Source: Vairimorpha necatrix
Taxonomy: Eukaryota
DNA length: 64,000 nt
NCBI GenBank assembly: GCA_036630325.1
Contig: CP142728.1
Span: 744,001-808,000, forward strand
Reading direction: 5' to 3'
The stretch's first letter is position 1. Every line of letters starts with the position of its first letter. The notes beneath the pieces were generated by a model, which was not told the origin of the DNA, made no database searches, and worked only from the letters and a program-made list of their open reading frames with translations. This document shows, in pieces, positions 24,194 to 59,169 of the stretch. The position numbers and the translations under genes were made by a program.

Positions 24194-24446
24194 TGAGGTA
24201 AACACTGGGCATTTTTCCAAGTTTAAAATATGTTTCTAAATAGGTTTTATTATAGGGTTCTTTGGCTATTATTGGCCTTTATTTGTCCAGAAATGTCATA
24301 GCTTTGCTTATGATTTCTTTTCTCGTAGCTCATGTCAAGCTTTTCAAAAATATTTATAAAAAATAAAATTCTGGAAAATCTTTTTTTTTTTCTAGAAAAG
24401 TTTTTATAGGATAAAATGATTTTATTGACATGTGGATAATACCACA
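24194..24446 (-). mobile_element. Solo LTR of the 27639-31754 family
   Basis: Diverged full-length LTR copy starting TGTGGTATTATCCACA on the minus strand; exact 5-bp TSD GTATA. Confidence 0.9.
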
Positions 24447-27638: not shown

Positions 27639-30600
27639 TGTGGTATTATCCACATCTCAAGAAAATCATTTTTTCTGATAAAAACTTTTTCTAGAAAAAA
27701 TGAATTTTCTAGAATTTTATTTTTTATAAATATTTATTTTTGAAAAGAAGGGCATGAGCTACGAGAAGAGGAGTCATAGGCAAAGCTATGACAGGTCAAA
27801 ACTTAACAAAGACCGATACAGGCCAGAAGAGCCTTTAATAAAAAATTATTTAGAAATGTATTTTAAACTGGGCAAAGTCCCCAGTAATAACGTCAAGTTG
27901 AATTCAACGAGGTTAAACATTAACAGTAACCCAGGAAACATTAAAGAAGATGGGTATACTGAATTCGAAAAGAATATTATTGATAACACTATTAAGTGTA
28001 AAGAAAAAATCTTAAAAATATATGATATAAAGACTCAGCTCACTCTTAAGCAGTTAGATAAATTTGAAGAATTGGGAAAGGCTAACAAATGGACAGATGA
28101 ACAAATGGCCATAATTTACTTATCATGTATCTACGATGAAAGAAAAGAAACTCTTACAAGTAATTCGTATTTAGTTCTTAGAAAAAGGATTTTAGATATA
28201 ATTTATCCGCCTGAGCGGAAGAGACAATGCATCAGGGATTTAGATGCTATAAATCAATCTAATTATACTACCATTAAAGATTATGAGGAGATTATAGGAG
28301 AAAGACTTTTAGCATATAGCTATTACAATAGTCTCACTAAGAAGAAGACCCAAAATAAAAAAGAAGAATTATTTTTAAAAGGATTGGGCGATTTTACGCA
28401 TTTGGAATTAACGCGTTTAAATATGATTAATCGACCCATAATTGAAATTTATGAATATCTAATTCAAGTTGAAAACGAATTAGTAATAAACATGAGTCAA
28501 AAGCCAGATCAAATGATTCGAAACTACAACTCAATAACTGGTAAATTGAATGAGAAGAAATGGTGTAGTTTTCATAAGAGTAACATTTCCCACGATACGA
28601 AACATTGCTACTTGCAAAAAAATAAAAATAATCAAAGACAAGAAAGTAATTATAAACCTGACAAAAATATGATTATTAAATTAAGAAAAAAAATAATTGA
28701 AGATGTTATAGTTGAAGGTACTATAAATAACCAAAAAGTAGATATTCTAGTAGACAGCGGATCAAAAAATAATTACATTAATAAAGAAGAAGTGAATCGA
28801 CTGAAATTACAAGTCGTCGAAGGCAAAAGGCTAAAAACAATCTTTGGAAACAATACAACCTTAGAATGCGATAAAAAGGTTAATGTAGAATTATTTTAAA
28901 AGATAGGGCCTTTAACACTAGCTTTTACGTATTAGAACAGGCTCCTGTTAACTTCATCCTGGGCAACGATTTCTTATACAATGTTAACGCGAAGGTTGAC
29001 TATCAAGCAGGAGTGGTAGAAATAGATAAAATATTATTGGAAATTCAAGGAATGGAGGAAGAAGCTGGAGAACGACTAGATAAATAATTAGAAAATAAGT
29101 CATGCATTGTTAGCGAAGATGAAAAGTTAAATAAATTTGTTGAACTCTACAAGCAAAATAACAAAAGGTTTAAATACTTGGAAGGAGAATTTGCATCCTT
29201 TAATATAAAAGAAAATATCCCTGTAATTAAAAGAAAGGCATACACTGTTCCCTTTCAATATATAAATAAGGCAAAGGAAGAAATTAAAAGACTTGTAAAA
29301 GAAGATATTATAGAGAAAAGTTTTTCAAATACAGTTAGTCCTGCATTCTTTATAGAAAAGAAGAATAAAGATCTTAGGCTGGTGGTAGATTACAGAGAAG
29401 TTAATAAAGCTATAGAAGATGACCCTTGGATACTACCAAATATTGATAATTGCTTAATTAACATGGGGGAAAATGAATATTTTTCACAATTAGACCTTAG
29501 TAATGGGTTTAATCAAATAAGAATTGATGAAAAAAGCAAAGAGATTACATCGTTTTTCCTATTAGGACAGCAGTGGCAGTATAACAGAATTTCATTTGGA
29601 ATCAAGCCCGGTCCCAAACTATTTCAAAGGTATATATAAAACATTTTAGGTAATATAGATAATGTATTTGTTTTTATCGATGACATAATCATATATAATT
29701 TGACGAAGTCTGATCATATTGAAACCGTACATATGGTGTTAAAGAGATTATATGATAAAGGAATACAAATCAACTTTGAAAAATCAAAAATTTTCCAGAA
29801 AGAAATAGAACTATAGGATATAGAGTTAACAATAAAGGCATTTTCCCTAAGACGAGTTATTTAGAAAACTCGATTTTTAATAAAGAAATAAAAACAAAGC
29901 GAGATTTGCAGAAATTACTTGGAGTATTAAATTGGTACAGGAGATTTATACCAGACATGTCTAGAAAAATTAGCAGCATTACAAACATGTTGTCAAATAA
30001 AAATAAAGCGATAAAAATTAATTCAAATATGAAGAATGAAATAAATAAGATTAAAATGTGGATTAAAGAAAAACATCATCTAAGTTTTCCAGACTACTCA
30101 AAAAGGTTTATGCTAGAAAGCGATGCTAGCGATATAGGGATGGGAAGTGTACTTACACAAGAAGGAAAGGTAATCAGATACTTTAGTAAGAAATTTTCAG
30201 GTTCAGAATTAAATTACACAATCGTAGAAAAGGAGTTCTTAGCAATCATACTATCATTACTTGAATTTAAAAATATCATACAAGGTTCTCATGTGGAAGT
30301 ATTAACGGACAGTAAAAATTGTATCTATGAAAATAAAGCCTCAAGTTCAAGGATTAGCAGGTGGAAGTTGCTGTTAAACGAATTCTGTCATACAATCAAA
30401 CATGTAAATGGAAAGGAGAACTGTTTGGCAGATCAACTATCTAGAAATCAAGCGTCACTTTTACATCAAAATGAAGAAAACGCAGTCAATACAACAAACA
30501 TTATAAAAGAATGTTGTCTCTATAAAAAAAATGGATCATTTTTAACAGATCAAAACAACAGGATCATTATAAAAAAGAAAAAGGTAGAGAGGTTTTTAGA

Positions 30601-31754
30601 ATTTATGCACAAGTATAGTGAACATAGAGGAAGTAGCACGCTATATTACAACCTAAAGAATTATTATTATATAAGTGGGTTGTTTAAAAGAATAATAAAT
30701 ATAACAAAGAAATGTAACACATGTGGTGTGTTCAAAGGTAATAACTATTTAAGATATGAAAAAAGTAAAATGATAGCGACGGAAAAATTTGAGAAGATTA
30801 GTACGGATATATATGGACCGTTTAATTTAGATAATTTCATAACTTCTGGTAGAAAAGAGGTAGGATATATCCTAACAATTACGGATATATATTCGAGGTT
30901 TACTCGATTATATTTTTTATACACAGTAAAATCAGAGTCAGTAATTCAAGCTCTAGAAAATTGGATAGAAACGTACGGCAAGCCAAAAACTTTAATATCA
31001 GACAATGGGCGCCAATACATAAGCAAGCAAACTAGAGAATTCTTAGCTGAACAACAGATTACACATACCTTAATACCTACATATACCCCTAGTTCTAATG
31101 GTATATCAGAAGCTATCAACAAGACAATTACATTTGTGTTGAGTATAAATAAAGGTAAAGAAATTAGACTCGCTCTTGCAAACGCAGAAAATGCGATAAA
31201 CCGAAATTATAATAGGAATATAGGCAAATCACCATTCTCCATCATAAACGAATATGATGAATACGATCCTATGCGAAGACCAATATCATATAAATATCCT
31301 TATAGTGCGACCACTTTACAGTTAGCTAAAGTGGGAGAATTCTGCCGAGAACGCTTATTTAATCCTGATAAGCTTGGATATAAATTTACAAAATTACGAA
31401 GAATCGAAGCGGTTAGTAAGAAAGGATATTGGGTCAGGGTAAAGGGGAATATAGGTTGGAGCCACATCAAAAATCTAAAGTTCTAGGAGAGGCAGACTGT
31501 GGTATTATCCACATATCAAGAAAATCATTTTTTCTGATAAAAACTTTTTCTAGAAAAAATGAATTTTCTAGAATTTTATTTTTTATAAATATTTATTTTT
31601 GAAAAGAAGGGCATGAGCTACGAGAAGAGGAGTCATAAGCAAAGCTATGACAGGTCAAAACTTAACAAAGACCGATACAGGCCAGGTGAGCCTTTAATAA
31701 AAAATTATTTAGAAATGTATTTTAAACTGGGCAAAGTCCCCAGTAATAACGTCA
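27639..31754 (+). mobile_element. Full-length Ty3/gypsy LTR retrotransposon (palindromic-PBS type)
   Basis: 257-bp LTRs (27639-27895 and 31498-31754, TG..CA, 4 mismatches by eye), exact TSD GTTTC, purine-rich tract AGGAGAGGCAGAC before the 3' LTR. Confidence 0.97.
27754..31486 (+). CDS. Gag-Pol polyprotein, broken by three frameshifts (about 28897, 29638, 29820)
   Basis: WCSFHKSNISHDTKHC, LVDSGS protease, LRLVVDYR and FIDD RT, ESDAS RNase H, and integrase TDIYGP / ISDNG / NGISE. Confidence 0.9.
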
Positions 31755-41900: not shown

Positions 41901-44900
41901 TCACACCACCATCCCAGCATTTTATTGGACAGTGTTAACCATTAGTCTTTATTACTTTCGGTCGCGTATGTTACAGAATACGATAGAATAGGGCTCGTGG
42001 GTGACTTTTGCTCCACGTCGTTAAATATAAAGGTTAGCTTTTGAAACATAACCCAGATGCACCTGCCATAGTCCATACTAGAACATTCATTGCAGATATT
42101 TTTATGTATTGATACGTTATCACAAGCGTGATGTGGTTTTCGGCCATAAAATGTTTTTTAACACATGATTATTATCTTTTATGTCTATTAAAAAAAATTA
42201 AAATTGTTTATTGTAAAAAAGACAGAATCAGCAAAACGAATAAAAGCCTCTAAGCCACAAAATCCCACCAATAAAGAAAAAATCATCAAAAATTGCGTTT
42301 ACACGCCAGCATACCTTAACAATTTCGCTCGTAGGAGAAAAGTTTGTTTATATAGGATACATCCTTAGTCATAATATGACCAGAGGCCCCCTTTTATGAG
42401 TCTGATGAAAAACGAAAACACCTGGATCAATACACCATTTAAGAACACGACTCAGTTCAGTGGAACAATACAGCATCAGTATCATGCCCGACCTCTCCCA
42501 GGTCAAATCTAATTAATTACAAGTCATGTTGTTAATAAATCAAACACCCTTTCTTCTATTTCTAGATCTTAGTTTTTTTTTAATTATTCTATATTAATTA
42601 TCTTGTTTTGCTATATATTTAAGTTTGATATTAAATATGATTTTCCATGAGACAACCATCTTGTCTTAGTAATCTATAATATCACAGAGTTCTTTTATCT
42701 TATCTGGGTTGTTTTTTAATCCGATTTTATTACCGAGAAGTAGTTTAGTTTTTTCTTGGACATTTGTTTTTGAACAAGTCAGTAAAGGCAGTTTATTTTC
42801 AAAAGATGTTCTAATGTCAGTTAACTAGACGCACTCTAGCAGAAAGTGTTCTAAATTTTCTTGTGGTCCATCACACAAAAAGCATTTATTTCTATAACTC
42901 ATTGGTATTCTTTTTGAATTGGCTATTGCTGAAACACCTTACGAGAATACATCTCAATCTAGTATATGTTCTAATGTTTCTATTATTTATTTTGTTCATG
43001 ACATATTTTATTTGTAAATTTCTTATGTCATATTGGTTTGCTATTGATGCAGCTAAAGAAGTATTTAGAGTTTTTCGAATTCTTAGTACATCAATTATTT
43101 TTGTAGTGATAAATCTACTATCACTTGATTCATATTCGTTGCCGACGAATTGTTTAAACCATCTTTGTTTTCTTGAATACCAAGTAGTTTTTCTTTCTTT
43201 CGGATTGATTAAAATTATATCCGATATGATTGTCTTATTGTGTTTCCTAAAAAAAAAAAAACTAAAAAACTTTTATTGTTATTAAAGAAAAGCCACCCAG
43301 CAAATAAAAACTTCAACAGCCAATAACTTGTGATACACACCAGCATACCATAAAGGCCTTGCTTGTAGGAGAAAAAATATCCCTTAGGATTAGAACCACA
43401 AACATTCCTGTCTGTGACCTGCGTTCAGCAGGGTTCTAAGAGAATAACACGTCTGACCTACTCGTCAGTTAAGAACCTAACTAGTTCAACGTAAATGCTA
43501 CGGCACCAGCAGCTTGCCATACCTCCCCCAGGTAAAAGTGTGTTTTTTTTCTTCTAGATTTCTCTAGATCTGTTCTGGCTTACAAGCCTCTCCTTTATTC
43601 GTATAACGATATATCGTTGTACAATCATCTTGTCTAAGAACTCTACTCTTACAAGTAGAGACTTTTTTTTTATCAAAAGAAGCTTTGATGCCATTGATGT
43701 TACCAATAATCATCTTAACTAGCTCCTCTTTTGTTTGAGTTGAAGATCTCAACTCAGATATTTTATTCTCATATAGAGATCTTGTGTTAGAGAGCGTCGG
43801 ACAGTCTAACAAGAAGTGTTCAAGGTCTTCTCGTTCTCCCTCACATAAGAAACAATGAGTCCTATAAAAAGGAGGGATTCTGTTGGCAATAGCCAAAGCA
43901 GAAGACCATCTGACTAAATTACACCGAAGCCTGGTGTAATTCCTGATCTGCCTGTTGTTTACTTTTGATAGTATGTGCTTAATCTGCGAGTCACAGATTC
44001 CATACTTATCTGCTACTAGAGCACCTAAGGTGGTGTTGTAGGAACCCCTTGCCTTAAGTACCTCTAAAATCTTGTTCTTGTCTATAATGTAGGCAATGCT
44101 TTCATAATCGTTCCCGATATATCTCTTACACCAACGTCTAGTCCTCGAACTCCTCGTTGTTTTCCTTTCCCTCGGAGGTTGGTTAATAAATTCCGAGATA
44201 ATGGTTTTATTGTGTTTCCACTTCCTTAATGCCCTAAATCTACTTAGGGCCGCCTGTATGTGAACTCTATTCTACAAAGTTCGTCCATTATCCTATCTAA
44301 TGGCACTATCTTGGTTCGAAATTTCATTCGGATCGCTTTTCTTAGGATTCTATTGATCCCACCAGACCTTATACTAGACATCCCCCATAATTCACTTCCG
44401 TACATTAGTGGGAAAAAACACATTTTTTATTAATATACCTTTAAAAGCTATATTGATTCCTTTATTTAGAAGCTTTGGTTTTAAGACTTCTAAAGCTTTT
44501 TTGCCTCTGAAGGCTCCATCTCTTACTAGGTGTTCTTCTAAAGTAGATCTTTTTATAAGAACACCCAAATACCTGTATTCGGCGACTTCACCGATTTTTC
44601 CAAAGTCAGTCCTGATAGCGACATCTACAGACTCGGATATATTACTGGCATCCCATACTAAGATACCACTTTTGTCACAGTTGATCTCCATACGATTCTC
44701 AACTGCCCATCTGCTGACTTGACATACTTTGTGTTTCAAATCAGCAAGAGTAATGCCTAGAACTACGATGTCATCTGCAAACATCCGTCCGGGCAGGCTT
44801 ATATTTGAGCGAGGAACGCTCAATCCTGTCATGCCGTCAAAAATATCATTTATGAATAGATTGAACAGCGTAGGAGAACAGGGGCACCCCTGTCTCACAC

Positions 44901-46084
44901 CTTTTTTGTAGAGATATCCACTACTTGTGTCTCCGATATACGGATTCTCATCTTAGTATTTCCATAGATATCTTTCAATGTGTTTATAGGATATCTTGGA
45001 ATACTATACCTTTCTAGCTTATTAAATAGTAGCTCATGGCTAACATTGTCGTAAGCTTTTTCAAAGTCAATAAAACATAGAAATGTTTGTTGACTTCGAA
45101 ATTCTCTTCTTTTAACCACCTCCAGCAAGGTTGCAATCTGATTCATACATTCTTCTCCTGCTCTAAATCCGGCTTGGAAAGGAGAAAGAATGTTCTTTTC
45201 TTCAACAAACTGTGTAAGTCTGTCGTTTACTATTTTTAAGTAAATTTTGCTTATTGTGTTAATTAGCGCAATTCCTCTATAGTTGTTGAGATCTGACACA
45301 TCTCCTTTTTTATGGAGGCAAATCATGTCAGCAGCACTCCAGCTAACAGGAGGGCTGTCTCCTGTTAGTATTCTGTTGAACTCGATCACAAGGAACAGAG
45401 GTAGTTTTTTATCTACTAAACTAGGTTTAAGTAGTATCTTGTATAGCTTGGTTGGAATCTCATCCGGCCCAGCTGCCTTGTTGTTGACACAGTTATTAGT
45501 GGCTCTCAGTAAATCCTCCATAGTGATGTTCTCTGGAGTATCCCTTTCGATATTTTTTTGATAGACATTTTCAACGTCTGAAATTGAGTTAGCTAGATTA
45601 GCGTAAAAGTCATTGGCTATCTCTAACTTCTTTTTATGCTCGTTATGAGCCATGCCTGATACATCTTTCAAACAAACATTGTATAATCTAACAGTAACGT
45701 TAGAAGAACTTTTCAACCATTTCCAGAAGTCTCTGGATCTGTTACTTTTATAGAGCTCAATGCCCTTGAAGGCCCAAAGTTTGGCTCGATCTTTCCGAAC
45801 TTTTATCTTTGTTGCCTTAATTTTATCCTTCAGTAACATGTACCTATGCACATACGTTACGGACCTATTCGTTAGCATACGCTTAGTAGCATATCTAAAA
45901 CTTTTAAAGACATTTACGTGTCTCCATCTGATGGGCAGCCCTTTGAATGTCCCCACTTTACTGTATATCTTGGAGGATATACAAACGTCTTTTAAAACTC
46001 TAGAGAGTTCATCTAGTGTGAATGTTTTTTCATTCAACTTTCTTGAAAGCTTAGCTTCCATTCCTGGATGCTCAAGTTTCTTCC

Positions 46085-46927
46085 GGGTGAAGGATACTTT
46101 AGACCCCACCCCCCCCCTTTGAAGCGCTTCAATTTTTTTTTCGAACCCCAAAATTGAAGTGCAAAAAAAAAGAGGAGCAAGAAAGGGACAAAAATTTCTT
46201 ATCACTTTAAACATTAAAAATAACAAATAAATATATGCTTTTATACAAAAATTAATTTTAGATTTAGTTATAATAATCATTTGAAGTATTGTGTCTTTTT
46301 TCGCCCTTCTTATTTTTTCAATTTTTTTTAATTGTTGGTTTATTATTAAAGTAGATTTTTGAAGAAAATCTACTTTAATAATAAACCAACAATTAAAATT
46401 ATAAATATTATTTATAAAAGAAAATTTAAATAAATGTTCAACGATCTACACATATTGTTAAATCAAAAAATTTAATTTAAATATGTTAAGTTATAAAGAA
46501 TTATATAGTTTTATGGTTATAATCTTTTTTTAAATTAAATTTCGTATACAAATATATATTTATTTGGTATTTTTACTGTTTGAAGATGCAAGTAATTTGA
46601 GTACTAATGATTGCTTCTCCTTTATTTTGCACTTCGTTTTTGGGGTTCAAAATTATAAAGTGAACACTCTCAGAGGGGAGCGTTTTTGTCCCCAATTCTA
46701 AAAAATCAGAAGGGCAAAATTAGCTTATTGGTTTATATTATTGTAAAAACTTGTATTAAAATATAATTGTGTACATAAATATATATTTATTTTGTATTTT
46801 TAATGTTTAAAGTGATAAGAAATTTTTGTCCCTTTCTTGCTCCTCTTTTTTTTTGCACTTCAATTTTGGGGTTCGAAAAAAAAATTGAAGCGCTTCAAAG
46901 GGGGGGGGTCTAAAGTACCCCACCTCC
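46085..46927. mobile_element. Mutator-like non-autonomous element (MITE) inside ORF2
   Basis: About 150-bp TIRs and an exact 9-bp TSD GTTTCTTCC (46076-46084 and 46928-46936). Removing it restores ..VYNRKKLEH.. in ORF2. Confidence 0.9.
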
Positions 46928-49482
46928 GTTTCTTCCTATTGTAGACAAATGGCCGTTCTCTCACTGGAGAAGGAAGAGATGATCACTTACCGTCCATCTT
47001 CGAGAGATTGTTACTTTCTCGTTGTCCTGAATTAAGACCCTAAATATCGTATCAATACGTCTTTTAGAGACTTGTCCATCACTCAGGATTCTTGTCCCTG
47101 GTAATTATGTTATAGTTTATTGCGGGGCTTAACCCTGCGATAGCAAGCTTCTTTTTGAGGGAAGAATCACTAGTATTCATATCCCCCATCACTACAATCT
47201 CCTTGTAGTTTCTTTTATCCTTCTCAATACTAAGAAGGTTAATTACTTTACTTAGAGTTTCGGCCTTTAACTCTCTCTCTTGTGGAACGTAAACATTGAT
47301 TATTAAGACCTTTGTCCATCCTGTACTAGTTTTGAATTCAACGACAGTTTGTAGAATATTGTCGTCATCCCCCTTTTTGGAACATCTTACTGCCCCGTCT
47401 TTTCTGACTAGAGTCATTAGACCCGGCCGATTCTTTCCTATGGCTGGTGTCTCCACCACCATATACTTTTCTAGTCTCGTAGAACCTGAGGATTTCATCC
47501 AAGTTTCTTGAAGACACAAGACTGTTGGCTTTTCTACTTTAAGGAGGATTTCCAAGTCCTCCTTCTTTCCGTAGAAATGGGTGATGTTAAGACTATAGAG
47601 CTTGGCCTTCTCTGTGGACTTGCATCTTCTTTTATTCTCCACCCTATCACGAGTTACAATTTCTTTTAATATTTCTAGGCCAAGTATATCCATGGCTTCA
47701 GAAATTTCTTTTTTTCTTGACCTTCTGACTACGCAGAAGGTGAAGTTAGCATCTTTTCTGCGATGCTTTCTGGTATAGATAAGAGAGTCCGAAATCCCGT
47801 TGACACTCTGTCTAACTGTTGTCGGAGTTCTTCTCTATTGATATGGTTGGCCATTGTTTTAACTAGACACAACCCCTTTTGAATGCTTGTTCTCGGCATT
47901 CTAGCTTTTACCATGATATAGACATGAGATTTAAATCTCAGTTTACATCCATTACTTTTATTAGTAAAGTTACTAACTTTTGGTGAATTGTTGGGTAGAC
48001 AATTAATTTTGGTACAGCTAAGAAGCAGTATAACTTGTTTTTTATTAAAATATATATTATTTAATAAAAATCTTTTAATAACAGCATTTTTAAAACTGTT
48101 CATTGTGATTTTTACTATCAACTTTCCTGTCTTTCCCGAGATGTTCAAAGTTTAACTCGGATAGAAAGAACTCTTCATGGCTTACTGTAGGCTTGTCAGA
48201 TAGACCGTTTTTTATAACTTTTACTGCCTTATCGACAGGCACATACTTCCTCCAATTTTGACGAAGATCGGAGAATATTTTCGTCAAAGCTGATCAGTTC
48301 CTAGAGATATAATTGCCTACTTCGTTTTCGGCAACTAATACTCTTACATTTTTGGAAGCGTTCTCAAGAGCTTCTGCAGCTTGAAAGTAGAATTCATCTC
48401 TAATGAGAAAGATTCTACCCTCGCCTTCAATATCTTTTACTAGGGGAATGTTCTTTTCCTCTATGCCTATTCTTTTGGCCCAGGTCTCCCTAATGATGTA
48501 TTCTCCTCGGGGGAAACCATAAGCGACTACAATTTTGTATTTGCAGTCCTTGAGCCTCTTTCCGTTGATTGCTAGGTCTAGCAACTCTTATCTGGATAGC
48601 TTATCTGACCAATTCGGCTGTTTCTTCCTCGATGTGTGAGGAGGAGGACCTTAAGCGAAGAAGTTTTCTTCATCTTGGATTTGCGCTCAGTCATAAATTT
48701 CGACTTCGCACAACCTTTTATAGATGACAGTAACAAATCATCTTTCAGTATTTTTTTACAAGTTTTAGAACTTGAAGCGGGTACTTTCAACTGTTTCGTA
48801 TCACAGTTGAAGTTCTTTTTTATACCTTCTAGGAATGGGGTAAACCTATTGGCATCTGCTGTTTTTGAAGTTTTTAAGGCATCAGCTTTTTTTGAAACCT
48901 TTGGTTCTATATCACAATTTTTAAGAATGATTGTCCAGTCATTCTCCGTCTTTTCTGTTAGAAGAATATTTTTCTTCAACAATTTCCTGTTTCCTTTTAC
49001 GGCGGCGGTTACCTTCCGTAAAAACACATTAATGGTATTGGATGATGGGATCCTTTTACCCGTAACCTTTATTTGCTCTATATCTTGAGCTTTAGAGAAG
49101 ACACCAAACTTCTCCTTTTCCTTTTTTTGATCAGTACGATCAGCATTTTTTGTGATTGGTTCTTCACACTCTCCTTTTTTGCAGTGAGAATCATGTCAAT
49201 TCTCTGCTCTAATCTTTCGTTTGAAGCCTTTAGGGCATCAATTTGTGTGTTGGGTTGGTTTCTCATTACAATAATCTCAATCTCATGCTGCTTCTTCAAG
49301 TTTTTATGCTTGAATCTCTGTTCATTGAGCTCTTCACAGATGGTATCTAAGTACTCCTGATGAATACTTGTCACTCCATGTGAACTCTTACAATAGGAAA
49401 CAAGGCTAGCCATCAGCCCAGCTCTCCCACAGTACCTTTGGTTGGCATTTCTGCCTTCTTCTATCTTTATTCTGTTGAATAA

Positions 49483-49877
49483 AGTCTCTGTTTGGGACCA
49501 GAATTTTATCATTTCTTGGTCTGTGTAAATAGCAGCCTTGCGGAAGCTGCTAACTTCACATTCTGGTTTGTATCCTTCCAATACTAGTGAATTAACACTT
49601 TCTTGTACTCCAGAGGTCAATAAGTCGGCCCCAATCTCGCAAGTTTCTTCCTCCTTTTTTTGCGTTTGGTGAACCCCATAGTCTCTGTTTGTGACCAGAA
49701 TTTTATCAATTCTTGGTCTGTGTGAATAGCAGCCTTGCGGAAGCTGTTAACTTCACAATCTGGTTTGTAGCCTTTTAATACTAGTGAATTAACACTTTCT
49801 TGTACTCCAGAAGTCGATAAGCCGGCCTCAATCTCGCAAGTTTCTTCCTCTTTTTTTTTGCGTTTGGTGAACCCCAT
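49483..49877. repeat. Tandem duplication, two copies of about 197 bp, at the 5' end of ORF1
   Basis: 49483-49679 closely matches 49680-49877; both encode SGVQESVNSLVL.GYKP.CEV.SFRKAAI. Confidence 0.92.
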
Positions 49878-49959
49878 CTATATGGATCAAACTCCTATTT
49901 ACATTGATATGATTCAATCGAGGACATTTTCATTCACCGCCAAAAACACTGAGGCACAT

Positions 49960-50215
49960 TGAGGTTATCACTGGGTATTTTGCCCAGTTTAAAATACATT
50001 TCTAACAATTTTTCATTTGAGGCTCTTCTGGCCTGTATTGGTCTTTGTTTAGTTTCGACCTGTCATCGCTTTACTTATGACTTCTCTTCTCGTAGCTCAT
50101 ACCCTTCTTTTCTTAAATAAATATTTATAAAAAATAAAAACCTAGAAAATTCATTTTTCCTAGAAAAAGTTTTTATAAGAAAAAATGATTTTCTTGAAAT
50201 GTGGATAATACCACA
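49960..50215 (-). mobile_element. Solo LTR of the 27639-31754 family
   Basis: Full-length diverged copy; TSD cacat / catat (4 of 5). Confidence 0.88.
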
Positions 50216-50969
50216 CATATACATGTGGTATCCCAGGAAAACCCTCCCGGATATAAAGTAATATCCTAAAATACTTTTAATAAATTGTTTTTTATTCATA
50301 ACTGTCCTTCTGGACTCTCTGCCATACTGTTCTTTCATTCTCTGTTCCATCTCCTTTTTACGTACCCTTCCTTTTTCTGGAAATTTATTTACAATAAATA
50401 TTTTATATGAAAATTCAATGATAGTTTTGACAAGGAGGGAAATAAGATAAATGTTGAAGACTAACAGTCTACAACAATACAACTAAAAAATCTGCAGACT
50501 AAAATTTTTGTTATTATTACTATTTCTTCAGAAGGACTGTTTTGAGGGGAATGGTTATTTTAAAAGGCCTTAAAAAACCGCCAAATGCTTTGTGCAAAAT
50601 AATCTTTTTGTAGCTACATCTGATCGAGAAACATGGATCAAAATTTGATGTTATTATGGATTCGAGCATGTTTAAACAAATATGGGTCATTTGAAAATAA
50701 AAAAAACTTCTTATTCTTGACAACTATAAATCTCATTATACTGAAAAAGTTATGAAAAGTTTTGCTAGTAATAACATTGATACCTTTTTAATTCACCTAA
50801 AGACTACATCTTATTTACAACCATTAGATGTTTTAATAAATTCTTCATTTAAGGTTGAATTAAAAAGAAAATGGCAGGAATGGCTTGCAAACGGCCCAAA
50901 GGAATATACAAATAAAGGTTATAGGCGTAGATCGAACTGGGGATATATTTTGAATTCAATGAAGGATGC

Positions 50970-53900
50970 TGTCGTACCTCCTGCGGAAGTACAACTCCAA
51001 TAAAGATAAGTTTTGAGTAAATAGTTTATTTCTCTTATCTTCCATACCCCTAAGTATGGAATTTTCTTTTATAGTTTTTTTTTGTTTGTTTACCGGGTAA
51101 ACAAATCAAGAAATGTCAAAAATGATATGTTTGACATGTGGGATACCACATCCTACCCTCTTCTTTTAATGTCCTTTATGTGGATCCAGTTGCCTCCTTC
51201 TTCTACTTTAACCCAGTTTCCTTTCTTCCCAACCTCTTTGATCGTACAGGGTCCTTTATATTGTTCATCCATTTTCCCAGCTTTGAAATCTCTTACAAAT
51301 ACTTTATCATTTATTTTTAATTTTTTATCGTTATTCTGGTTCAGTGTGGCTGGAACTGATTTGTATTTTGGTTCCTTTAGGTGGCTTTGTCGTCTGAATG
51401 GGTCAAAAAAGCTGTATTGTTTCTCTAATTCGAATGGAGAACATCCAATAGTTCTTTTGTAATTTACGTTAAGTTTAATGTTAATTTTATTTGTTATGTC
51501 GTTGATGTTATTTAGCTTGTTTATCCTTAGACATTCAGCTATTATACTGTTTTGCCTTTCTGCCATTCCGTTGCTTTGTGGATGGTATATTGGAGTGTTA
51601 ACGAGTTTAATTCCTCTACTTTTCTCATATTTTTCTCTGAGTTTTTCTCCGGTAAATTGTGTGCCATTGTCCATGATAATTTTTTCTGGCTGTTGAAATT
51701 CTTGTATCCATTTATCTATACATTTTAATATTGTACCTTCCGTTATGTTATATAGAAGGTATACCCTTGAAATTCTTGAGTAAACGTCTGTTATGCAAAG
51801 GTAATAAGCCTTATAATGGATTGTATCATGTTCAAAATTTTCAAGTTCAAATGGTCCAAATATGTCCATGGCTATTGTTCCGTAAATTTTATCAGATTCG
51901 ATCTGTAATTTCTGAGTTTTGACTTTCTCTTTCTTATTTAAGTTACACATTCTGCAATTTTTTGTTATTGCTATTATTTTGTTCTTTAATCCAATTATGT
52001 TGTAGAAAGGAGAGAGATTCTTGTTTAATACTACGATTCCTGGGTGGCCGGCTAGTTCATGTATTTTCGTTAGAAAATTTTCTGCTTCGGTGTTTTTGAT
52101 CATTATTTTGTCATCTTTATTTCTTTCCCAGTTTTCCTTTCCGGATTTATCGTCTGATATTTTTTCTACATATTGTTCTATTATATTCGTAAGGTTATTT
52201 CCATGTCTGACATTTTCTATTTTAAAACATCTTGATAGGTAGTCAGCTACTGAGTTATTCTCTCCTGCGATTTGTTTTATGCAGTAATTGTGCTCTATCA
52301 TCATCGCATCCCATCTTTTTATTTTTCTGCTTATTTTGCTTTTAAATAGACAATTCCTGTTATCTGTATAGATTTCGACGTAATTTCCGAGTACTATGTT
52401 TCTGCACTTATCCATCGCGTATACTATTGCAAAGTATTCTTTTTCCACTATTGTATAATTTCTTTCAGTTTTATTAAATTTCATGCTTATATTTAAAATT
52501 ATTCCGTGTTCTTGTGATAGTACTGCGCCCATTCCTAGTTCAGAGGCGTCGCAATGTAGTGTAAATTTTTTACTGTAGTCTGGCAGTACTAGATGGCTAT
52601 TGTTCTTTAGTGTACTTACTAATTTGTTTATTATTAGATTGTCTTCTTTTGTTAGCTTGACTTTTTTTTCGTTTCCTTTTAGCTTTTCGGTTAAGCTTAG
52701 AATTTCTAGACTTAAGTTTGGAATGTATTTTCTGTACCAATTAAATATACCAATTATTTTTTGCAGGTCTTTTTTAGTGTGGCATTTCATGTTTTCTGTT
52801 AGTTTACAGTCTTTCGTGAGAGGGTACATTTTTCCGTTAAAAATTCTTGTTCCTAGGATTTCGGTGTCCTTTGTGCAAAACTCTGATTTTGCGAAATTTA
52901 CATTTACATTGTAATGTTTCAATCTTGTGAACAGTTCTTTAAGCGTATTGAGGTGTGATTCGTAGTCCTTTGTGGCAATTATTATGTCGTCTATATATAC
53001 TGAAATGTTATTTATCCCGAAAAGTATTTTGTTCATGATTTTCTGAAAAGCTTTTGGTCCATTTTTTAATCCAAAAGGAAGTCTTTTGTACCTGAATGTT
53101 TTACCAAATATCGAAAATGCTGTCCATTTTCTGCTATCTTTTGCTAGGAGTAATTGATTAAACCCGTTTGTCAAGTCTAATTTGCTTATTACTTCGCTTT
53201 TACCAAGTTGATAAATAATATCGTCCATTTTGGGTATTATTTCCACTTCATCTTCAACAAAGTTATTTATTTCTCTATAGTCTACTATTAATCTCATTTT
53301 CCCATTTTTCTTTTTCTTAAAAAATGCGGGACTTGTGTATCTTTCATTACATTCTTCTATTATGTCAGCGGTTATAAGTCGTTGTATTTCGGCTATTGCA
53401 TCTTCTTTAAAGTTTGATGGTACGGCATAGTTAATTTTCTTACATTTTATGTCGTTGTTTGAAACTTGTAATTTAACGTGATCTGTGTTTATAGGACAAT
53501 TTTCTTTGATTTCTCTTTTATAATTATCTATAATTTCCCTAAGTCTTTCTTCTTCCTTAGTGATAAGTATTTTTCCTGGGGTTTTTTCGAATTCTGTTTC
53601 TTCTGCATTTGTTTTCATATTTACGGTTGCGTTGTTCCAGATTATTTTCTTTCTTGTAAAATCTAATATAATATCGTTTCTCGATATGAAATCTCTACCA
53701 AGTATAATATTGACTGGTAGGTTTTTTAATAAGTAAAATTCAATCTTGCATGTCTCGTTTTGATCCTTTAATTTTAAGTCGAGTTCTATTGTAGTGTTAG
53801 TTTTTTCACTAGATTTATTACCGAACATTACCTGGATCTCTTTGTTTTCTCTAGTGGTGATGTTCCATTGTTCTACGAGGTCTGCTTTAATAAAGTTTAA

Positions 53901-55066
53901 TCCTGCTCCGCAGTCTATAGTTCCTGTTGACTCGTGTTTTGTGTTGATTATGAGTGGGATATCGAGTTGTTCGACAATGGTAGGATTTTCTAAAATAACA
54001 TAGTTTAAAGAGTTTTTATTTTCCCTGGGCTCTGAAGTCTTTCTCGTTGTATTCTTTAAATTTTGATTGGTATCGGGAACTACTGTCTTTTTGTAGTTGT
54101 TGAATTTTTCGTGTTTTACTTTGCTCATATTCGATCGATTTGTTTCATTGCTTTGCCCGCAGTCTCTCGTTGTATGTCCCAAAGTTTTGTGGACTTTACA
54201 CCATTTTTTCATGAATCTTATACCTGAGGTGTTATTTAGCTTTCTCGGTATGTTAAATCTTGTTATTATGTTTTCTTCAATTCTTTTTAGAGCTGGTATG
54301 ATTTCGGGTAGTGTTTCGAAGTTTTGTTCCTCGAGATATCTTACTGTTTCTAAGCCTAGTCCTCTGTATAGAGATTCCTTTGATCTTCGTTCATATTCTT
54401 TCATGCTACAGTTGGATACTTTACTGTAGATAGTTAATCGATTCATGATTTCGTTTACATAGTCGTCGAAGAAGATGTGGTCAGTCTGTTTGAGATTACT
54501 CAGTTCTGCTATTAAGTTCTCGACCCTTTTCTGTGAAAATACTTTGGACATGATGTATTTTTTGTTCTCTTCATAGTCATCTTTCAATTTGGTTTTATCT
54601 ATAATCTGATCTTCTATAAGATCGTATAAAAAGAGCCTTTTAGTTTCTTCATTCCATTGGTTCCTTTGGAAAATTTCTTCGATCTTTTTGAACCATCCTA
54701 GTAGATCGATTTCGAATATGTCGTTGATCAGTTCTACATTCTTAGTGATTCCTAGATCCACTTCACCTGTCTTAATTCTTATGGTGACTACTTTTGTTTC
54801 TTGAATTTTGGAGTTGTGCCCTGCGATTTCTCTTCCTCGCGTGGGTGGGAGTTCATTATATTTGTACTCTCTTATTGAATTCAATATGTCGTACCTCCTG
54901 CGGAAGTACAACTCCAATAAAGATAAGTTTTGAGTAAATAGTTTATTTCTCTTATCTTCCATACCCCTAAGTATGGAATTTTCTTTTATAGTTTTTTTTG
55001 TTTGTTTACCGGGTAAACAAATCAAGAAATGTCAAAAATGATATGTTTGACATGTGGGATACCACA
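50970..55066 (-). mobile_element. Intact Ty3/gypsy LTR retrotransposon (palindromic-PBS type)
   Basis: LTRs 50970-51150 and 54887-55066 are identical except for one T in a homopolymer; exact TSD GATGC; PPT AAAAGAAGAGGGTAGGA. Confidence 0.98.
51153..54962 (-). CDS. Single uninterrupted Gag-Pol polyprotein (1269 aa from the first ATG)
   Basis: First ATG at 54962 (MEDK), preceded by GGGG. Motifs WCKVHKTLGHTTRDC, IDCGA, YIDD, HCDAS, HELAGH..CRMC, MDIFGP / MDNG / NGMAE and a GPC C-terminal module. Confidence 0.95.
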   Translation of the reverse strand: MEDKRNKLFTQNLSLLELYFRRRYDILNSIREYKYNELPPTRGREIAGHNSKIQETKVVTIRIKTGEVDLGITKNVELINDIFEIDLLGWFKKIEEIFQRNQWNEETKRLFLYDLIEDQIIDKTKLKDDYEENKKYIMSKVFSQKRVENLIAELSNLKQTDHIFFDDYVNEIMNRLTIYSKVSNCSMKEYERRSKESLYRGLGLETVRYLEEQNFETLPEIIPALKRIEENIITRFNIPRKLNNTSGIRFMKKWCKVHKTLGHTTRDCGQSNETNRSNMSKVKHEKFNNYKKTVVPDTNQNLKNTTRKTSEPRENKNSLNYVILENPTIVEQLDIPLIINTKHESTGTIDCGAGLNFIKADLVEQWNITTRENKEIQVMFGNKSSEKTNTTIELDLKLKDQNETCKIEFYLLKNLPVNIILGRDFISRNDIILDFTRKKIIWNNATVNMKTNAEETEFEKTPGKILITKEEERLREIIDNYKREIKENCPINTDHVKLQVSNNDIKCKKINYAVPSNFKEDAIAEIQRLITADIIEECNERYTSPAFFKKKKNGKMRLIVDYREINNFVEDEVEIIPKMDDIIYQLGKSEVISKLDLTNGFNQLLLAKDSRKWTAFSIFGKTFRYKRLPFGLKNGPKAFQKIMNKILFGINNISVYIDDIIIATKDYESHLNTLKELFTRLKHYNVNVNFAKSEFCTKDTEILGTRIFNGKMYPLTKDCKLTENMKCHTKKDLQKIIGIFNWYRKYIPNLSLEILSLTEKLKGNEKKVKLTKEDNLIINKLVSTLKNNSHLVLPDYSKKFTLHCDASELGMGAVLSQEHGIILNISMKFNKTERNYTIVEKEYFAIVYAMDKCRNIVLGNYVEIYTDNRNCLFKSKISRKIKRWDAMMIEHNYCIKQIAGENNSVADYLSRCFKIENVRHGNNLTNIIEQYVEKISDDKSGKENWERNKDDKIMIKNTEAENFLTKIHELAGHPGIVVLNKNLSPFYNIIGLKNKIIAITKNCRMCNLNKKEKVKTQKLQIESDKIYGTIAMDIFGPFELENFEHDTIHYKAYYLCITDVYSRISRVYLLYNITEGTILKCIDKWIQEFQQPEKIIMDNGTQFTGEKLREKYEKSRGIKLVNTPIYHPQSNGMAERQNSIIAECLRINKLNNINDITNKINIKLNVNYKRTIGCSPFELEKQYSFFDPFRRQSHLKEPKYKSVPATLNQNNDKKLKINDKVFVRDFKAGKMDEQYKGPCTIKEVGKKGNWVKVEEGGNWIHIKDIKRRG

Positions 55067-56071
55067 GATGCATAAAAAAAATAACTCCCGAAATGGCTTT
55101 TCGGGCTCTTAGATTGTAAAGAACAGATTCATGTTTTCTTGAAAACAATACTTTTAATTTGAACAATAAACTTCAAGATGTTCTTTATTGTGCTGAAATT
55201 GAATACAAAGGCCTAGACTGTGAAAATTTATTTGTAGATTCTAAAGAAATCTAAAGGTTTATTGTAATAAAGGGTTCATTTTTTTAAATTATTTTTTTAC
55301 CATTTGGCTGAGGGGTGGAACTCTTATACTAGTATCAGTTTCTTTTTAAAAAGTCATAAAATTCAACTTTTTTTTTTTTTTGGGGGGGGGGTGTTAACTT
55401 AACCCGGAACCCCCGGTAATAAAAAAATAATTATGCAGAAAGGAACATTTAGAATGATATTTACGTACAGGCCTCCTACCTGGTGGCAACACCACAAAAC
55501 TACTTTTAAAAAATTAGAAAGGAAGATGAATTTTAAATCCTTAACTGATGAGGAAAATATTGAAGAAATCTTAGACAAAGCAGAGACGGATATAATTATA
55601 GCACACGAACGCTTTAAAGAGACAAAAACTAAGGAAGATCATGTACGACGCATGAAATGAATACGGCTTCCCCATTTCAATAAAAAACATCTAAAAGAGA
55701 ATTTTAGAAAGAAGAACGTGTTACGATTTTTTATAAGGATAGAAAATGAAAAGAAACTATCATTAACGATTACGAGCTAATTATTTGAGTTTAGTTGCCT
55801 TGGATTAAAGATGTTAAGAGTTGAGTGGAAAAGGCAACACTGGAGTTAAAAAAAAATGATGAAGTATTATAGACACTATAAAGAAGATAGAGATCATCAA
55901 GTGATAATCCGACTACAGAGATATAATACGAAACCAGGTAACGGTATAATGCAACGAGTACGATAAAAAACAGCTGAATTACGTCGAAACGGCTAATGCA
56001 ATATTTAAAAGAATTAAGTTTATATCGAGGGTCATCAGTTTTGGCTATTTTGACAGACGATTAGAATATAG

Positions 56072-58570
56072 TGTGGTGCGAGCTGCCTTCCTGGCCGCTC
56101 GGCTTGTTTAAATAGTTTACGTTTGTATAATTTTTATTGACTCTTTTAGTTTTCATAACTTGGTGAAGGGCTAGAAATTCATCCTTTTATGTTTTATTTT
56201 TAATAAATGTCAAGCATGTCAATTATTGGAGGGAAAGCTGGTCTCTTATACAGCTTTCCATATTTTGACATTATTCACTAGGTTAGACATTTTCTTATTC
56301 GTCATTTGTTTGTTGACGAAGACGTATTTGTTTACGTCTATGACTCGGCTGTAATTGAGATATGACAGCCGGGGGGGGGGGGGGTTCGAGTATTAGAGTC
56401 TCACTGGGCTTGTCATAGGGACAGGAAGGATGTCGTGTGACACACTCCCCTCCTTTCGAAGGATCCACTCTGCTGGATCTGATTCTTCAATCCACATGAT
56501 ATCCTTCCTATTCACTTTGTATTCTTTCTCGTCTAGTAAATAGTTCCTATACAGTCCATCTCCACCCAACCTTTTATTAAGTCTTGCAATTTCCTCGCGG
56601 TTAGTATTAAATTTCCTAATTTTTTTAATCAATAGTTTTTTTCTTTTAAATATTTTGAGGAATCTTTTGTCCCTTCGTCTTGTATGTGACTGTTGATATT
56701 TTTTCTTTTTGTTTGGTGTAACATTATCTTTTATTTTGGTAAGCGTTTCTAATGGTTTATTTGTTAAAGGTATAGGCTGTCCTGGTTTAGTTGTAGGTGC
56801 CACAAGTTTTTTTACGCTTAAAGTTGATCTCAAGGGTTTCTGTTTGTTTTCTACTACCCCGCGTTGGGAAACACAGTCCACGTCATTTATTTTAACGTTT
56901 TCGTCTGTTAAATTTGATTAACTTCTTTTGTCCTTTTGCGACTTTCGAGATTTTCTTCTTGTTCATCTCCTGTTATTTTACTTGGATGGTTCTTATATTT
57001 CACTTCATCTTGTAAATGTTTAGTGTTAATAATTAATTTTAAATTCAGTTTGGGCTTATTAAACATTTCTTTTTTACCTATAGATTTCTTTGTATCGTTT
57101 TTCCGAACTTTCTGTTTTTCTAACTTAATGTTACTGTCCTTACTCTTTAGTTCCTCAGCTTTTTTGAAACCAGCACTGACTTTTGTTTCTCGGGGTTGTT
57201 TCTTTTCTTTCCCGTATGTGTGATGTAATCAAATAGTTCTAGTTTGTTGATTTCCTCTATCCCGAGTATCAGTTCCTCTTCTACTTCTTCTAGAACTTGA
57301 CACTTTACTGCTTTTATGTCGTTTTTTCTTTTAATGTGAAGTGTAGTTTCTCCATAGACTGTCGTTTCTCCATTTATTCCCTTGATACTTAAATTCGTTG
57401 ACGCAATGTGAACTTTTAACTCCTCAGCTATATCTTTTCTGATTATCGAATCAGTTGCACCCGTGTCCAAGAGTGTGTTTATTTTTAAAGGCCCGGTTTG
57501 TAGTAGTACTCGCGGCCTGTCGTCATCTTTGTTGTTAATCGATGTAACAATTTGTATAGCTTTTGTTTTATAGTTCGGTTCAAATTCTCCTTTCACTCTC
57601 TTTTCATATATCATGTCTTTTGTATCATGATTATTTAGTTTACTTTTTACATTAAAGTTTATCTTCTGTTCGTATCTCTTACAGAAGTTGAGTATATCTC
57701 CCCAAGTAGTGCATCCCTCGATTTTATCTAATAAATAGTAATCGTTGCCTAGATACTCCATTATCTTATTAGTGGCATTTCTTATCTTCTTTTTGTTTCT
57801 TTCAGAAGATTTCATTAATTCGTATACGTATGTTATAATGTCTTGATATTTTGGGCCATTCAAGATTAAGTGCCAAAATACTTGTTCGTTGTCTTCGGCT
57901 TCTGGTGCCGGTAAATATTCTTCTTCAAATTCTTTTTTGAAACTCTCATAATCACAAATTTCGAAGCCTTCCTTTGCTTCAAACCATGCAAGAGCTTTAA
58001 ATTCGAGTTTAGTTTTGATTATTTTGAAGATTTGTTCTGGTGTTTTCTCACCCTCTAATTCAATAAATTGTTGTATGAAGTCTCTGGGGGTTTTCTCCTC
58101 TAGTTCCCTTAAATTTATAAAATCTTTCTGTAGTTAGCATCCCTGCTAACTTTTAATAACACTCCCTATGTTATCCTCGGCATTCGCGTTGTCGCCATTG
58201 TGGTGCGAGCTGCCTTCCTGGCCGCTCGGCTTGTTTAAATAGTTTACGTTTGTATAATTTTTATTGACTCTTTTAGTTTTCATAACTTGGTGAAGGGCTA
58301 GAAATTCATCCTTTTATGTTTTATTTTTAATAAATGTCAAGCATGTCAATTATTTGAGGGAAAGCTGGTCTCTTATACAGCTTTCCATATTTTGACATTA
58401 TTCACTAGGTTAGGCATTTTCTTATTCGTCATTTGTTTGTTGACGAAGACGTATTTGTTTACGTCTATGACTCGGCTGTAATTGAGATATGACAGCCCCC
58501 CCGGGGGGGGGGTTCGAGTATTAGAGTCTCACTGGGCTTGTCATAGGGACAGGAAGGATGTCGTGTGACA
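56072..58570 (-). mobile_element. Non-autonomous LTR element (gag and protease only)
   Basis: About 371-bp near-identical LTRs (56072-56442 and 58199-58570), exact TSD TATAG, PBS TGGCGACAAC, PPT AAAGGAGGGGAG, LLDTGA protease. No RT or RNase H motifs in the 1.76-kb interior. Confidence 0.93.
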
Positions 58571-58584
58571 TATAGATTTATAAC

Positions 58585-58843
58585 TGTGGTATTATCCGCA
58601 TGTTAAGAAAATTTTTTTTTCTTGCAAAAACTTTTCTAGAAAAAATGAATTAACAAGAATTTTATTTTTTATAAATGCATATTTTAGAAAAGAAGGGTAT
58701 TAGCTGCGAGAGGTGAAATTCTAAGCAAAGCTATGACGGGTCAAAACTAAACAAAGACCAATGCAAGCCAGAGGAGCCGTCGCCTTCAATAAAAATTATT
58801 TTAAAATTATTAAAAATGAGCAAAGTACCTAGCGTTAACGTCT
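58585..58843 (+). mobile_element. Solo LTR of the 27639-31754 family
   Basis: TGTGGTATTATCCGCA...TAACGTC, collinear with the 257-bp LTR; no TSD recognised. Confidence 0.85.
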
Positions 58844-59169
58844 GTTAGGTTAGATATGTAGAAATATTACAAATGAATATATGTTTATTAATTTTATAGT
58901 CGAATCAGATACAGTAATTGTTTTTATAAAGCTAAAAAACAATAATCACTCATCTTAATAGGAAGAAAAAAATAAAAAGCTTAAGAGCTTGCAATATATC
59001 ACAGAATTATTAGTGACTAATCTTGATCTAAGGGTTAAATATGGAAAAAACGTAATAATGTCAGCTGTCAGAAAAAAATAATTTTAGCAAGCATTATAAG
59101 TTACACAAGGAAAAAATGATTTTATGCGAGTGAATGATTATGATTTGTCATTAATATCTTTAAACTACT

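Follow-up and report, generated by a model that had tools for sequence, protein, structure and literature searches.

Structure of elements A and B and the palindrome at their primer-binding position

In a 64,000-nucleotide (nt) stretch of Vairimorpha necatrix DNA (contig CP142728.1, positions 744,001 to 808,000; hereafter the window, from whose first letter all coordinates are counted), we analyzed element A, an intact Ty3/gypsy retrotransposon on the minus strand (55066..50970). This element carries a perfect palindrome at the position of its primer-binding site (PBS), next to the 5' long terminal repeat (LTR). The features of A, including its single gag-pol open reading frame (ORF), are as follows.

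54887..55066, minus strand: 5' LTR, 180 nt, TGTGG...CGACA, last base A at 54887
54873..54886, minus strand: 14-nt perfect palindrome TATTGAATTCAATA at the primer-binding position
54888..54912, minus strand: predicted U5 hairpin, 11-bp stem and 3-nt loop (minimum-free-energy fold)
51153..54962, minus strand: single gag-pol ORF, 1269 codons plus stop
51151..51167, minus strand: polypurine tract AAAAGAAGAGGGTAGGA, directly upstream of the 3' LTR
50970..51150, minus strand: 3' LTR, 181 nt, with one extra A within an A run
55067..55071 (5' side) and 50965-50969 (3' side), minus strand: 5-bp target-site duplication GCATC

All of the features that define a Ty3/gypsy element were found in A, i.e., the LTR pair, the target-site duplication, the polypurine tract and the domain order. 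The ORF encodes protease (PR, ~53679-53954), reverse transcriptase (RT, ~52845-53315), RNase H (~52299-52649) and integrase (IN, ~51579-52091), which is the gypsy order PR-RT-RNase H-IN; the copia order, with integrase before RT, was not seen. An earlier description of this DNA, made from the letters alone (the sequence-only reading), had reported one open gag-pol ORF and effectively identical LTRs, and our results agreed with it, as the ORF is uninterrupted over its 1269 codons and the two LTRs (180 versus 181 nt) were 99.4% identical in pairwise comparison. The LTR ends were fixed by the LTR-LTR comparison, the GCATC duplication and the polypurine tract. Furthermore, contigs of two public runs (X1 and X2) carry the flanks of A joined to each other with the element missing; in one, there are 5 shared letters. 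These empty-site joints indicate that the boundaries of A are those of a real insertion. No RNA run was among those listed as containing A.

The palindrome follows directly after the last base of the 5' LTR (...GGAGGTACGACA; A at 54887) when the minus strand is read, and no TGG was found within 80 nt following this LTR. Thus, the positions, the LTR boundary and the 80-nt scan bear out the earlier claim of a 14-bp palindrome directly after the 5' LTR without a TGG-initiated PBS. The 12-nt palindrome that is kept family-wide corresponds to 54874-54885 in A, and its 10-nt core to 54875-54884. The predicted U5 hairpin stops one base short of the LTR end and adjoins the palindrome. The Gag ATG lies inside the 5' LTR, in frame, at 54962, ~20 nt after TATAAAAG (54990..54983), so that the ORF runs through U5 and the palindrome, which is read as Ile-Leu-Asn-Ser-Ile. 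Within the window, TATTGAATTCAATA has a single match at ≤1 mismatch (0.11 expected), and there are 32 perfect 14-nt palindromes, about half of them within one (AT)n run. Taken alone, the site of A is only modestly improbable; it gains its weight through the relatives. Among the differences listed for the public-run contigs, none falls inside 54873-54886, and 366 further differences lie outside that list. One contig of run X2 (depth 84.6) matches the LTR of A, the palindrome and 8 more bases and then skips 154 nt of the Gag N-terminal region (window 54710-54865); it represents a variant subfamily that keeps the palindrome.

A second element of the window, B, has a palindrome at the same position.

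27639..31754, plus strand: element B, with LTRs at 27639-27895 and 31498-31754 (98% identical) and target duplication GTTTC
27897..27908, plus strand: 12-nt perfect palindrome GTTGAATTCAAC of B, beginning 1 nt after the LTR end ...CGTCA (27895)

The ORF of B is interrupted between 28899 and 29957, and its Gag ATG, at 27754, also lies within the LTR. A and B are just 36% identical in the RNase H-integrase region. They have the 10-nt core in common, and the pair flanking it is A-T in A and G-C in B. At the palindrome, the Gag of B reads Lys-Leu-Asn-Ser-Thr, and the Leu-Asn-Ser codons, TTG AAT TCA, are identical in the two elements. Among the other residues conserved between A and B, the same codon is used for 4 of 23 Leu, 14 of 27 Asn and 1 of 12 Ser, and in the nearby LE.YF motif all four conserved residues differ at synonymous sites. 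This codon identity at the site, despite synonymous change elsewhere, indicates that it is conserved as nucleotides.

The 10-nt core occurs four times in the window (0.44 expected), two of these occurrences being the primer sites of A and B. A third copy (50950-50959) lies 10 nt past the 3' LTR of A, within the final codons of an ORF for a pogo-like DDE transposase (plus strand, from 50752). The empty-site contigs show that this copy is part of the target DNA, and its proximity to the insertion site may reflect chance or a target preference. The fourth copy (47332-47341), which reads Val-Glu-Phe-Lys, falls within the ORFs of a non-LTR (LINE-like) retrotransposon with endonuclease and reverse transcriptase (window 44392-47693, minus strand) and is apparently there by chance.

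Conservation of self-complementarity across the family

Loci related to A were fetched by scanning the contigs of prokaryote genomes with a pol alignment, which led to eukaryote-like contigs in metagenome bins; a search of those bins with a Gag alignment added more. Five fetched loci carry the Gag N-terminal region of the family or the DNA upstream of it. The 3' boundary of their LTRs was deduced from the CA and the alignment, and that of A and B is proven by LTR pairs and duplications.

L003: LTR end ...GGCA, spacer T, palindrome TATGACGTCATA; peptide GIMTSY
L004: LTR end ...GACA, spacer T, palindrome GCTGATATCAGC; peptide DMLISA
L005: LTR end ...AACA, then the 16-nt palindrome TAATTGATATCAATTA; Gag ATG downstream, site non-coding
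L017: LTR end ...GCCA, spacer A, palindrome ATTGAATTCAAT; peptide AKLNSM, the same as in protein P0132
L019: LTR end ...GACA, spacer A, palindrome GATGAATTCATC; peptide DKMNSS

A perfect palindrome of at least 12 nt was found at the site in all seven elements (A, B and the five fetched loci), in six different sequences, and in 6 of the 7 the arrangement is the LTR CA, one base and then a perfect 12-nt palindrome. In the seven-element alignment, all cells of the 12-nt palindrome are Watson-Crick paired (42/42), and three of the six pairs have changed on both sides, each with three pair types. None of 500 shuffles reached the observed covariation score or the observed percentage paired, and structures shifted by 1-3 columns left just 20-55% of cells paired. 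The pair just outside the 12-nt palindrome is not kept across the family. Compensatory changes that keep the palindrome, for which the sequence-only reading had proposed to search among family members, are therefore present, as three covarying pairs.

Some fetched sequences fell outside this set. The gypsy element on contig L007 has an ordinary TGG... site 1-3 nt after its LTR. The weak Gag matches L016, L018 and L020 (G004) were rejected as other families, without a clear LTR end or palindrome. A metagenome scan gave two short loci with 26-27% identity. No match was obtained from a scan of genome contigs with P0136, from scans of viral contigs with P0140 and the pol alignment, or from a word search for Gag-protease. 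In the L003 and L005 contigs the start is repeated at the end (147 and 190 nt, respectively), and each is a circular permutation of one element with a single LTR; these repeats could mean that LTRs or tandem copies were collapsed in assembly, or that the molecules are one-LTR circles.

The nearest named relatives of this lineage belong to the microsporidian Nosema granulosis, whose polyprotein is the nearest full-length protein (32% identity) and has DILNSI at the same place in Gag. A profile of three Gag N-terminal halves was compared with 1.84 billion representative proteins and gave 402 matches at E <= 0.001, 167 of them at E <= 1e-10. The best 150 of these 167, together with A, B and the Nosema protein, made up a family alignment of 153 sequences (family profile, two rounds), of which 61 have a residue at the Leu column and were scored; the other 92 start later or are too diverged.

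In 58 of the 61 proteins, codons exist for the four residues at the motif column that would together form a perfect 10-nt palindrome in frame. Among the other four-residue windows of the same proteins the corresponding figure was 4.2% (807/19435). The 61 proteins show 34 four-residue states and imply 14 palindromes, and the peptide varies (LSS, LIS, LHA, LSL, MNS with F or Y, MSS with L or W) while self-complementarity stays. Most telling are the changes in two codons, LNS to LHA or to LSL; LDP, LNL and LLT were recognized by eye and stand outside the count. When the first residue is Leu, the residue three places on has codons starting only with A in 34 of 41 proteins, the rest being 3 Arg, 3 Ser and 1 Ala, and the single Ala case fits CTG...G. 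When the first residue is Met, a residue with codons starting only with T stands three places on in 7 of 13, with 4 Leu, 1 Ile and 1 Glu making up the remainder. A Fisher test on the unambiguous cases (34/0 versus 1/7) gave p = 3e-7. In L003, L004, L017 and L019, which are all of the coding loci fetched as DNA, the codons form the palindrome as this peptide test assumes, including the rare ACG for Thr and CTG...G for Leu...Ala.

Pairing partners of the site and models for priming

LTR elements have three established priming solutions: the 3' end of a tRNA, a tRNA half and, in Tf1, fold-back of the transcript 5' end. For A, B and the three fetched loci L003, L004 and L005, we compared the best duplex between the site and the LTR with those from 500 dinucleotide shuffles of the whole LTR, and also assessed the 200 nt downstream of the site. 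The number of shuffles (of 500) that were at least as good was as follows.

Site versus LTR: A 448, B 464, L003 378, L004 114, L005 499
Site versus 200 nt downstream: A 272, B 28, L003 319, L004 134, L005 364

In none of the five elements did the LTR hold a complement to the site better than shuffles, so self-priming of the Tf1 type was rejected; the earlier statement that A has no long complement to the site inside its LTR thus extends to five elements. No partner common to the five was found in the 200 nt after the site, B alone being marginal (28/500), and a downstream partner of the kind known from the fungal GalEa elements was likewise rejected. The self-duplex of the site, by comparison, has a predicted energy of -13.4 to -19.4 kcal/mol. 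When the 5' region of A was folded as two molecules, the palindrome formed an intermolecular helix, and the single-molecule hairpin contributed little. Within the first 80 nt after the LTR, A and B have no other candidate primer site in common, and no tRNA was found in the 64-kb window.

Altogether, these results make it very probable that selection maintains the site as a self-pairing element at the primer position, and that it is no tRNA site. Our reading of its function, to which we give a probability of about 0.5 on the strength of the sequence comparisons, is that the palindrome would be the minus-strand PBS of a Ty3/gypsy lineage, complementary to itself rather than to a tRNA, and that priming would occur in trans, by a partner RNA. 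The 3' end of the primer sets the U5 boundary, and in 6 of 7 elements a single base separates the CA from the palindrome; the primer must therefore anneal at the palindrome. A second RNA molecule whose own copy of the site acts as the primer would satisfy the requirement for self-complementarity at once. We propose, with somewhat more hesitation, that this could be a fourth way of priming for LTR elements, in which the site of a cut RNA primes on the identical site of its partner, so that dimerization would itself be priming.

In this model, two genomic RNAs would pair via the site in a duplex of 12-16 bp. One of the RNAs would be cut at the 3' edge of the duplex, by analogy with Tf1 by the RNase H of the element's RT, and the new 3'-OH, already annealed to the partner's site, would be extended through U5 and R. 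Plus-strand strong-stop DNA would then copy the 12 nt of the primer and could anneal to the site as copied into the minus strand, after which the later steps would be the usual ones.

Several points weigh against priming by a partner RNA. The pairing of RNAs in particles, the cut and the priming are steps that we infer, and if both RNAs are cut, no template keeps the site joined to gag, so that an asymmetric cut is needed. At the DNA level, a single contaminated metagenome bin supplied four of the five fetched examples, and the inner three pairs are invariant in the seven examples. At the protein level, palindromes were deduced from peptides for 61 proteins and 92 of the 153 were unscored; changes in the middle codon (N to S, I or T) are checkable from DNA alone; and there are three misfits among the 61 (P0144 MNSI, P0162 MTSE and P0222 FSSN), although in P0144 the M is the first residue of the protein and may stand for a TTG start, and P0222 is weakly aligned. 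Moreover, 7 of the 21 single-base non-synonymous neighbours of LNS stay compatible with a palindrome, so the effective null is weaker than 4.2% would suggest and nearer to one third per step. The Gag tree has 29 tripeptide changes with at most three misfits, which, as judged from these sequences, is far from drift even under the one-third null.

Chance, or conservation of the Gag peptide Leu-Asn-Ser alone, has a negligible probability in our judgment. Leu-Asn-Ser and the nearby LE.YF are indeed the sole invariant residues in the first 60 of three diverged Gags, as a constraint on the peptide would predict. The sequence-only reading had named, as the outcome that would speak against it, relatives that keep Leu-Asn-Ser with free synonymous change, and we observed the opposite: the peptide varies widely while compatibility with a palindrome stays, the codons of A and B are identical where synonymous change is otherwise the rule, and the site of L005 is non-coding. 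The window has 8e-4 perfect 12-nt palindromes per position, and the fetched contigs have one or two each; a chance origin is contradicted by the covariation. A protein-binding site was rejected because it would not covary. An ordinary primer site for a host RNA (the 3' end of a tRNA, a tRNA half or a small RNA) that is palindromic by accident is the default for LTR elements, and yet we consider it very improbable here. The sequence drifts while self-complementarity is kept, and a shared host RNA would fix the sequence, whereas different RNAs would not all be palindromes; the six sequences in seven DNA examples and the 14 inferred from proteins are all self-complementary. In addition, the site lacks a TGG start, and a gap-free 12-nt palindrome would be a mismatch for a tRNA arm with its 7-nt loop.

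The remaining alternatives accept self-pairing and differ in what it does. The palindrome could be a dimerization or packaging signal only, with reverse transcription starting by other means (a host RNA displacing the dimer, protein priming or an unprimed start). Palindromes that link two genomic RNAs are known in retroviruses (discussed in a part of PMC5445492), and covariation indicates pairing, not priming. We regard this explanation as unlikely, since the first 80 nt after the LTR offer no other primer site common to A and B, since the U5 boundary, one base before the palindrome, requires that a primer end there, and since the known dimer sites occupy hairpin loops, with a separate primer site next to them. 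Fold-back in cis, which the sequence-only reading had named as an alternative, is in our view less probable still. Here a single RNA would form a hairpin and be cut just past the palindrome, and its own 3' end would prime synthesis through U5 and R. This requires the same self-complementarity and fits all of the covariation. However, a 12-nt palindrome gives just a 4-bp stem with a 4-nt loop, compared with -13 to -19 kcal/mol between molecules; the hairpin plays a minor part when the 5' region is folded, and in the dimer fold the site pairs between molecules; and cutting the sole template just past the site separates it from gag. The position of the site, its conservation and covariation, the lack of a tRNA-type site and the lack of another partner within the element are seen in the sequences themselves; the pairing of RNAs in particles, the cut and the priming belong to the proposed model.

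Other elements of the window and known priming systems

The window contains further LTR elements and fragments. Elements F and G have a canonical, non-palindromic TGGCGACAACG site 1-3 nt past the LTR, as the sequence-only reading had stated for such elements in this window. In G (56072-58498, minus strand), LTRs of 300 nt lie just 2127 nt apart and are abutted by C/G homopolymer runs; this element, too short for gag-pol, is likely a deleted or non-autonomous copy. Three solo LTRs are related to those of B, at 49959-50215 (minus strand, 90% identical), 58585-58846 (plus strand, 80%) and 24204-24446 (minus strand, 80%), and the palindrome follows none of the three. Beside a B-like solo LTR, a 179-nt unit is tandemly duplicated (49483-49858, 93% identical). 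At the LTR starts of A and B there is a small inverted repeat (TGTGG...CCACA), and TGTGGTAT occurs at eleven places: 27639, 31498, 32000, 50224 and 58585 on the plus strand, and 55066, 51150, 50215, 37666, 24446 and 20408 on the minus strand. The LTRs of A, B and the B-like solo copies start at places in this list, and 32000 is the reverse strand of the LTR end of F. The LTR of L017 also begins with TGTGGTAT.

Compared with canonical tRNA-primed gypsy elements (F, G and L007), the palindromic elements have the same LTR-CA, short spacer and site geometry, the polypurine tract and the 5-bp duplication. The canonical sites begin with TGG and are non-palindromic, whereas those described here are self-complementary and variable in sequence. 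Retroviral dimer initiation sites are palindromes that link two genomic RNAs, and the likeness lies in a short palindrome that would pair two such molecules. In retroviruses, however, this palindrome sits in a hairpin loop downstream of a separate tRNA site, and here it abuts U5 and occupies the primer site. The Tf1/sushi chromoviruses carry a chromodomain at the C-terminus of integrase, and a Pfam scan found no chromodomain in A.

The comparisons that follow draw on parts of the cited papers. In Tf1, the primer site pairs with the 11 nt at the start of the transcript (PMC6317226, PMC5445492, PMC6934838), and RNase H cuts the resulting RNA-RNA duplex (PMC5445492, PMC6934838). Tf1/Tf2 and the model proposed here are alike in that both are independent of tRNA and in that cutting an RNA-RNA duplex would release a stretch of the element's RNA to act as primer. 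The Tf1 site need not be a palindrome, and here the site pairs with itself and not with the LTR. Plant surveys, as presented in the portion of PMC6317226 used, distinguish priming by tRNA, by half-tRNA and by the element itself, and no further class. A survey of microsporidian transposons described microsporidia-specific gypsy groups with a single polyprotein (PMC4202319), and its main text contains no occurrence of PBS, primer, tRNA or palindrom-. The literature searched yielded no account of palindromic primer sites for gypsy or microsporidian elements.

The start of reverse transcription is a defining step of every retroelement. A self-complementary primer site that spans a lineage, with covariation readable from proteins, offers a testable case for a tRNA-independent mechanism that would tie dimerization to priming. 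A practical consequence is that these elements will be mis-scored by LTR-element finders that require a tRNA match.

The closest published parallel is the Conserved Hairpin Site of GalEa, a fungal Ty1/copia element: a palindrome right after the 5' LTR that variants keep, with no tRNA site (Donnart et al. 2017, PMC5445492; cited in PMC6934838). The authors of that study reported no complement in U5 and considered that no known model fits (PMC5445492, in the part consulted). The elements described here resemble GalEa in that the 5' LTR is immediately followed by a conserved palindrome instead of a tRNA site, and they differ from it in several respects. GalEa has the copia domain order and these elements the gypsy order; its palindrome is 10 nt, counting the last A of the LTR, compared with 12 nt here, set off from the CA by one base; GalEa has another conserved sequence, 12-41 bp farther downstream, that pairs with the first, and no such partner is common here; and in this lineage the site is usually part of the Gag coding sequence. 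By analogy, the GalEa site may be an independent invention of the same trick, and if priming by a partner RNA is true, the mechanism would account for the unexplained palindromic site of these fungal elements.

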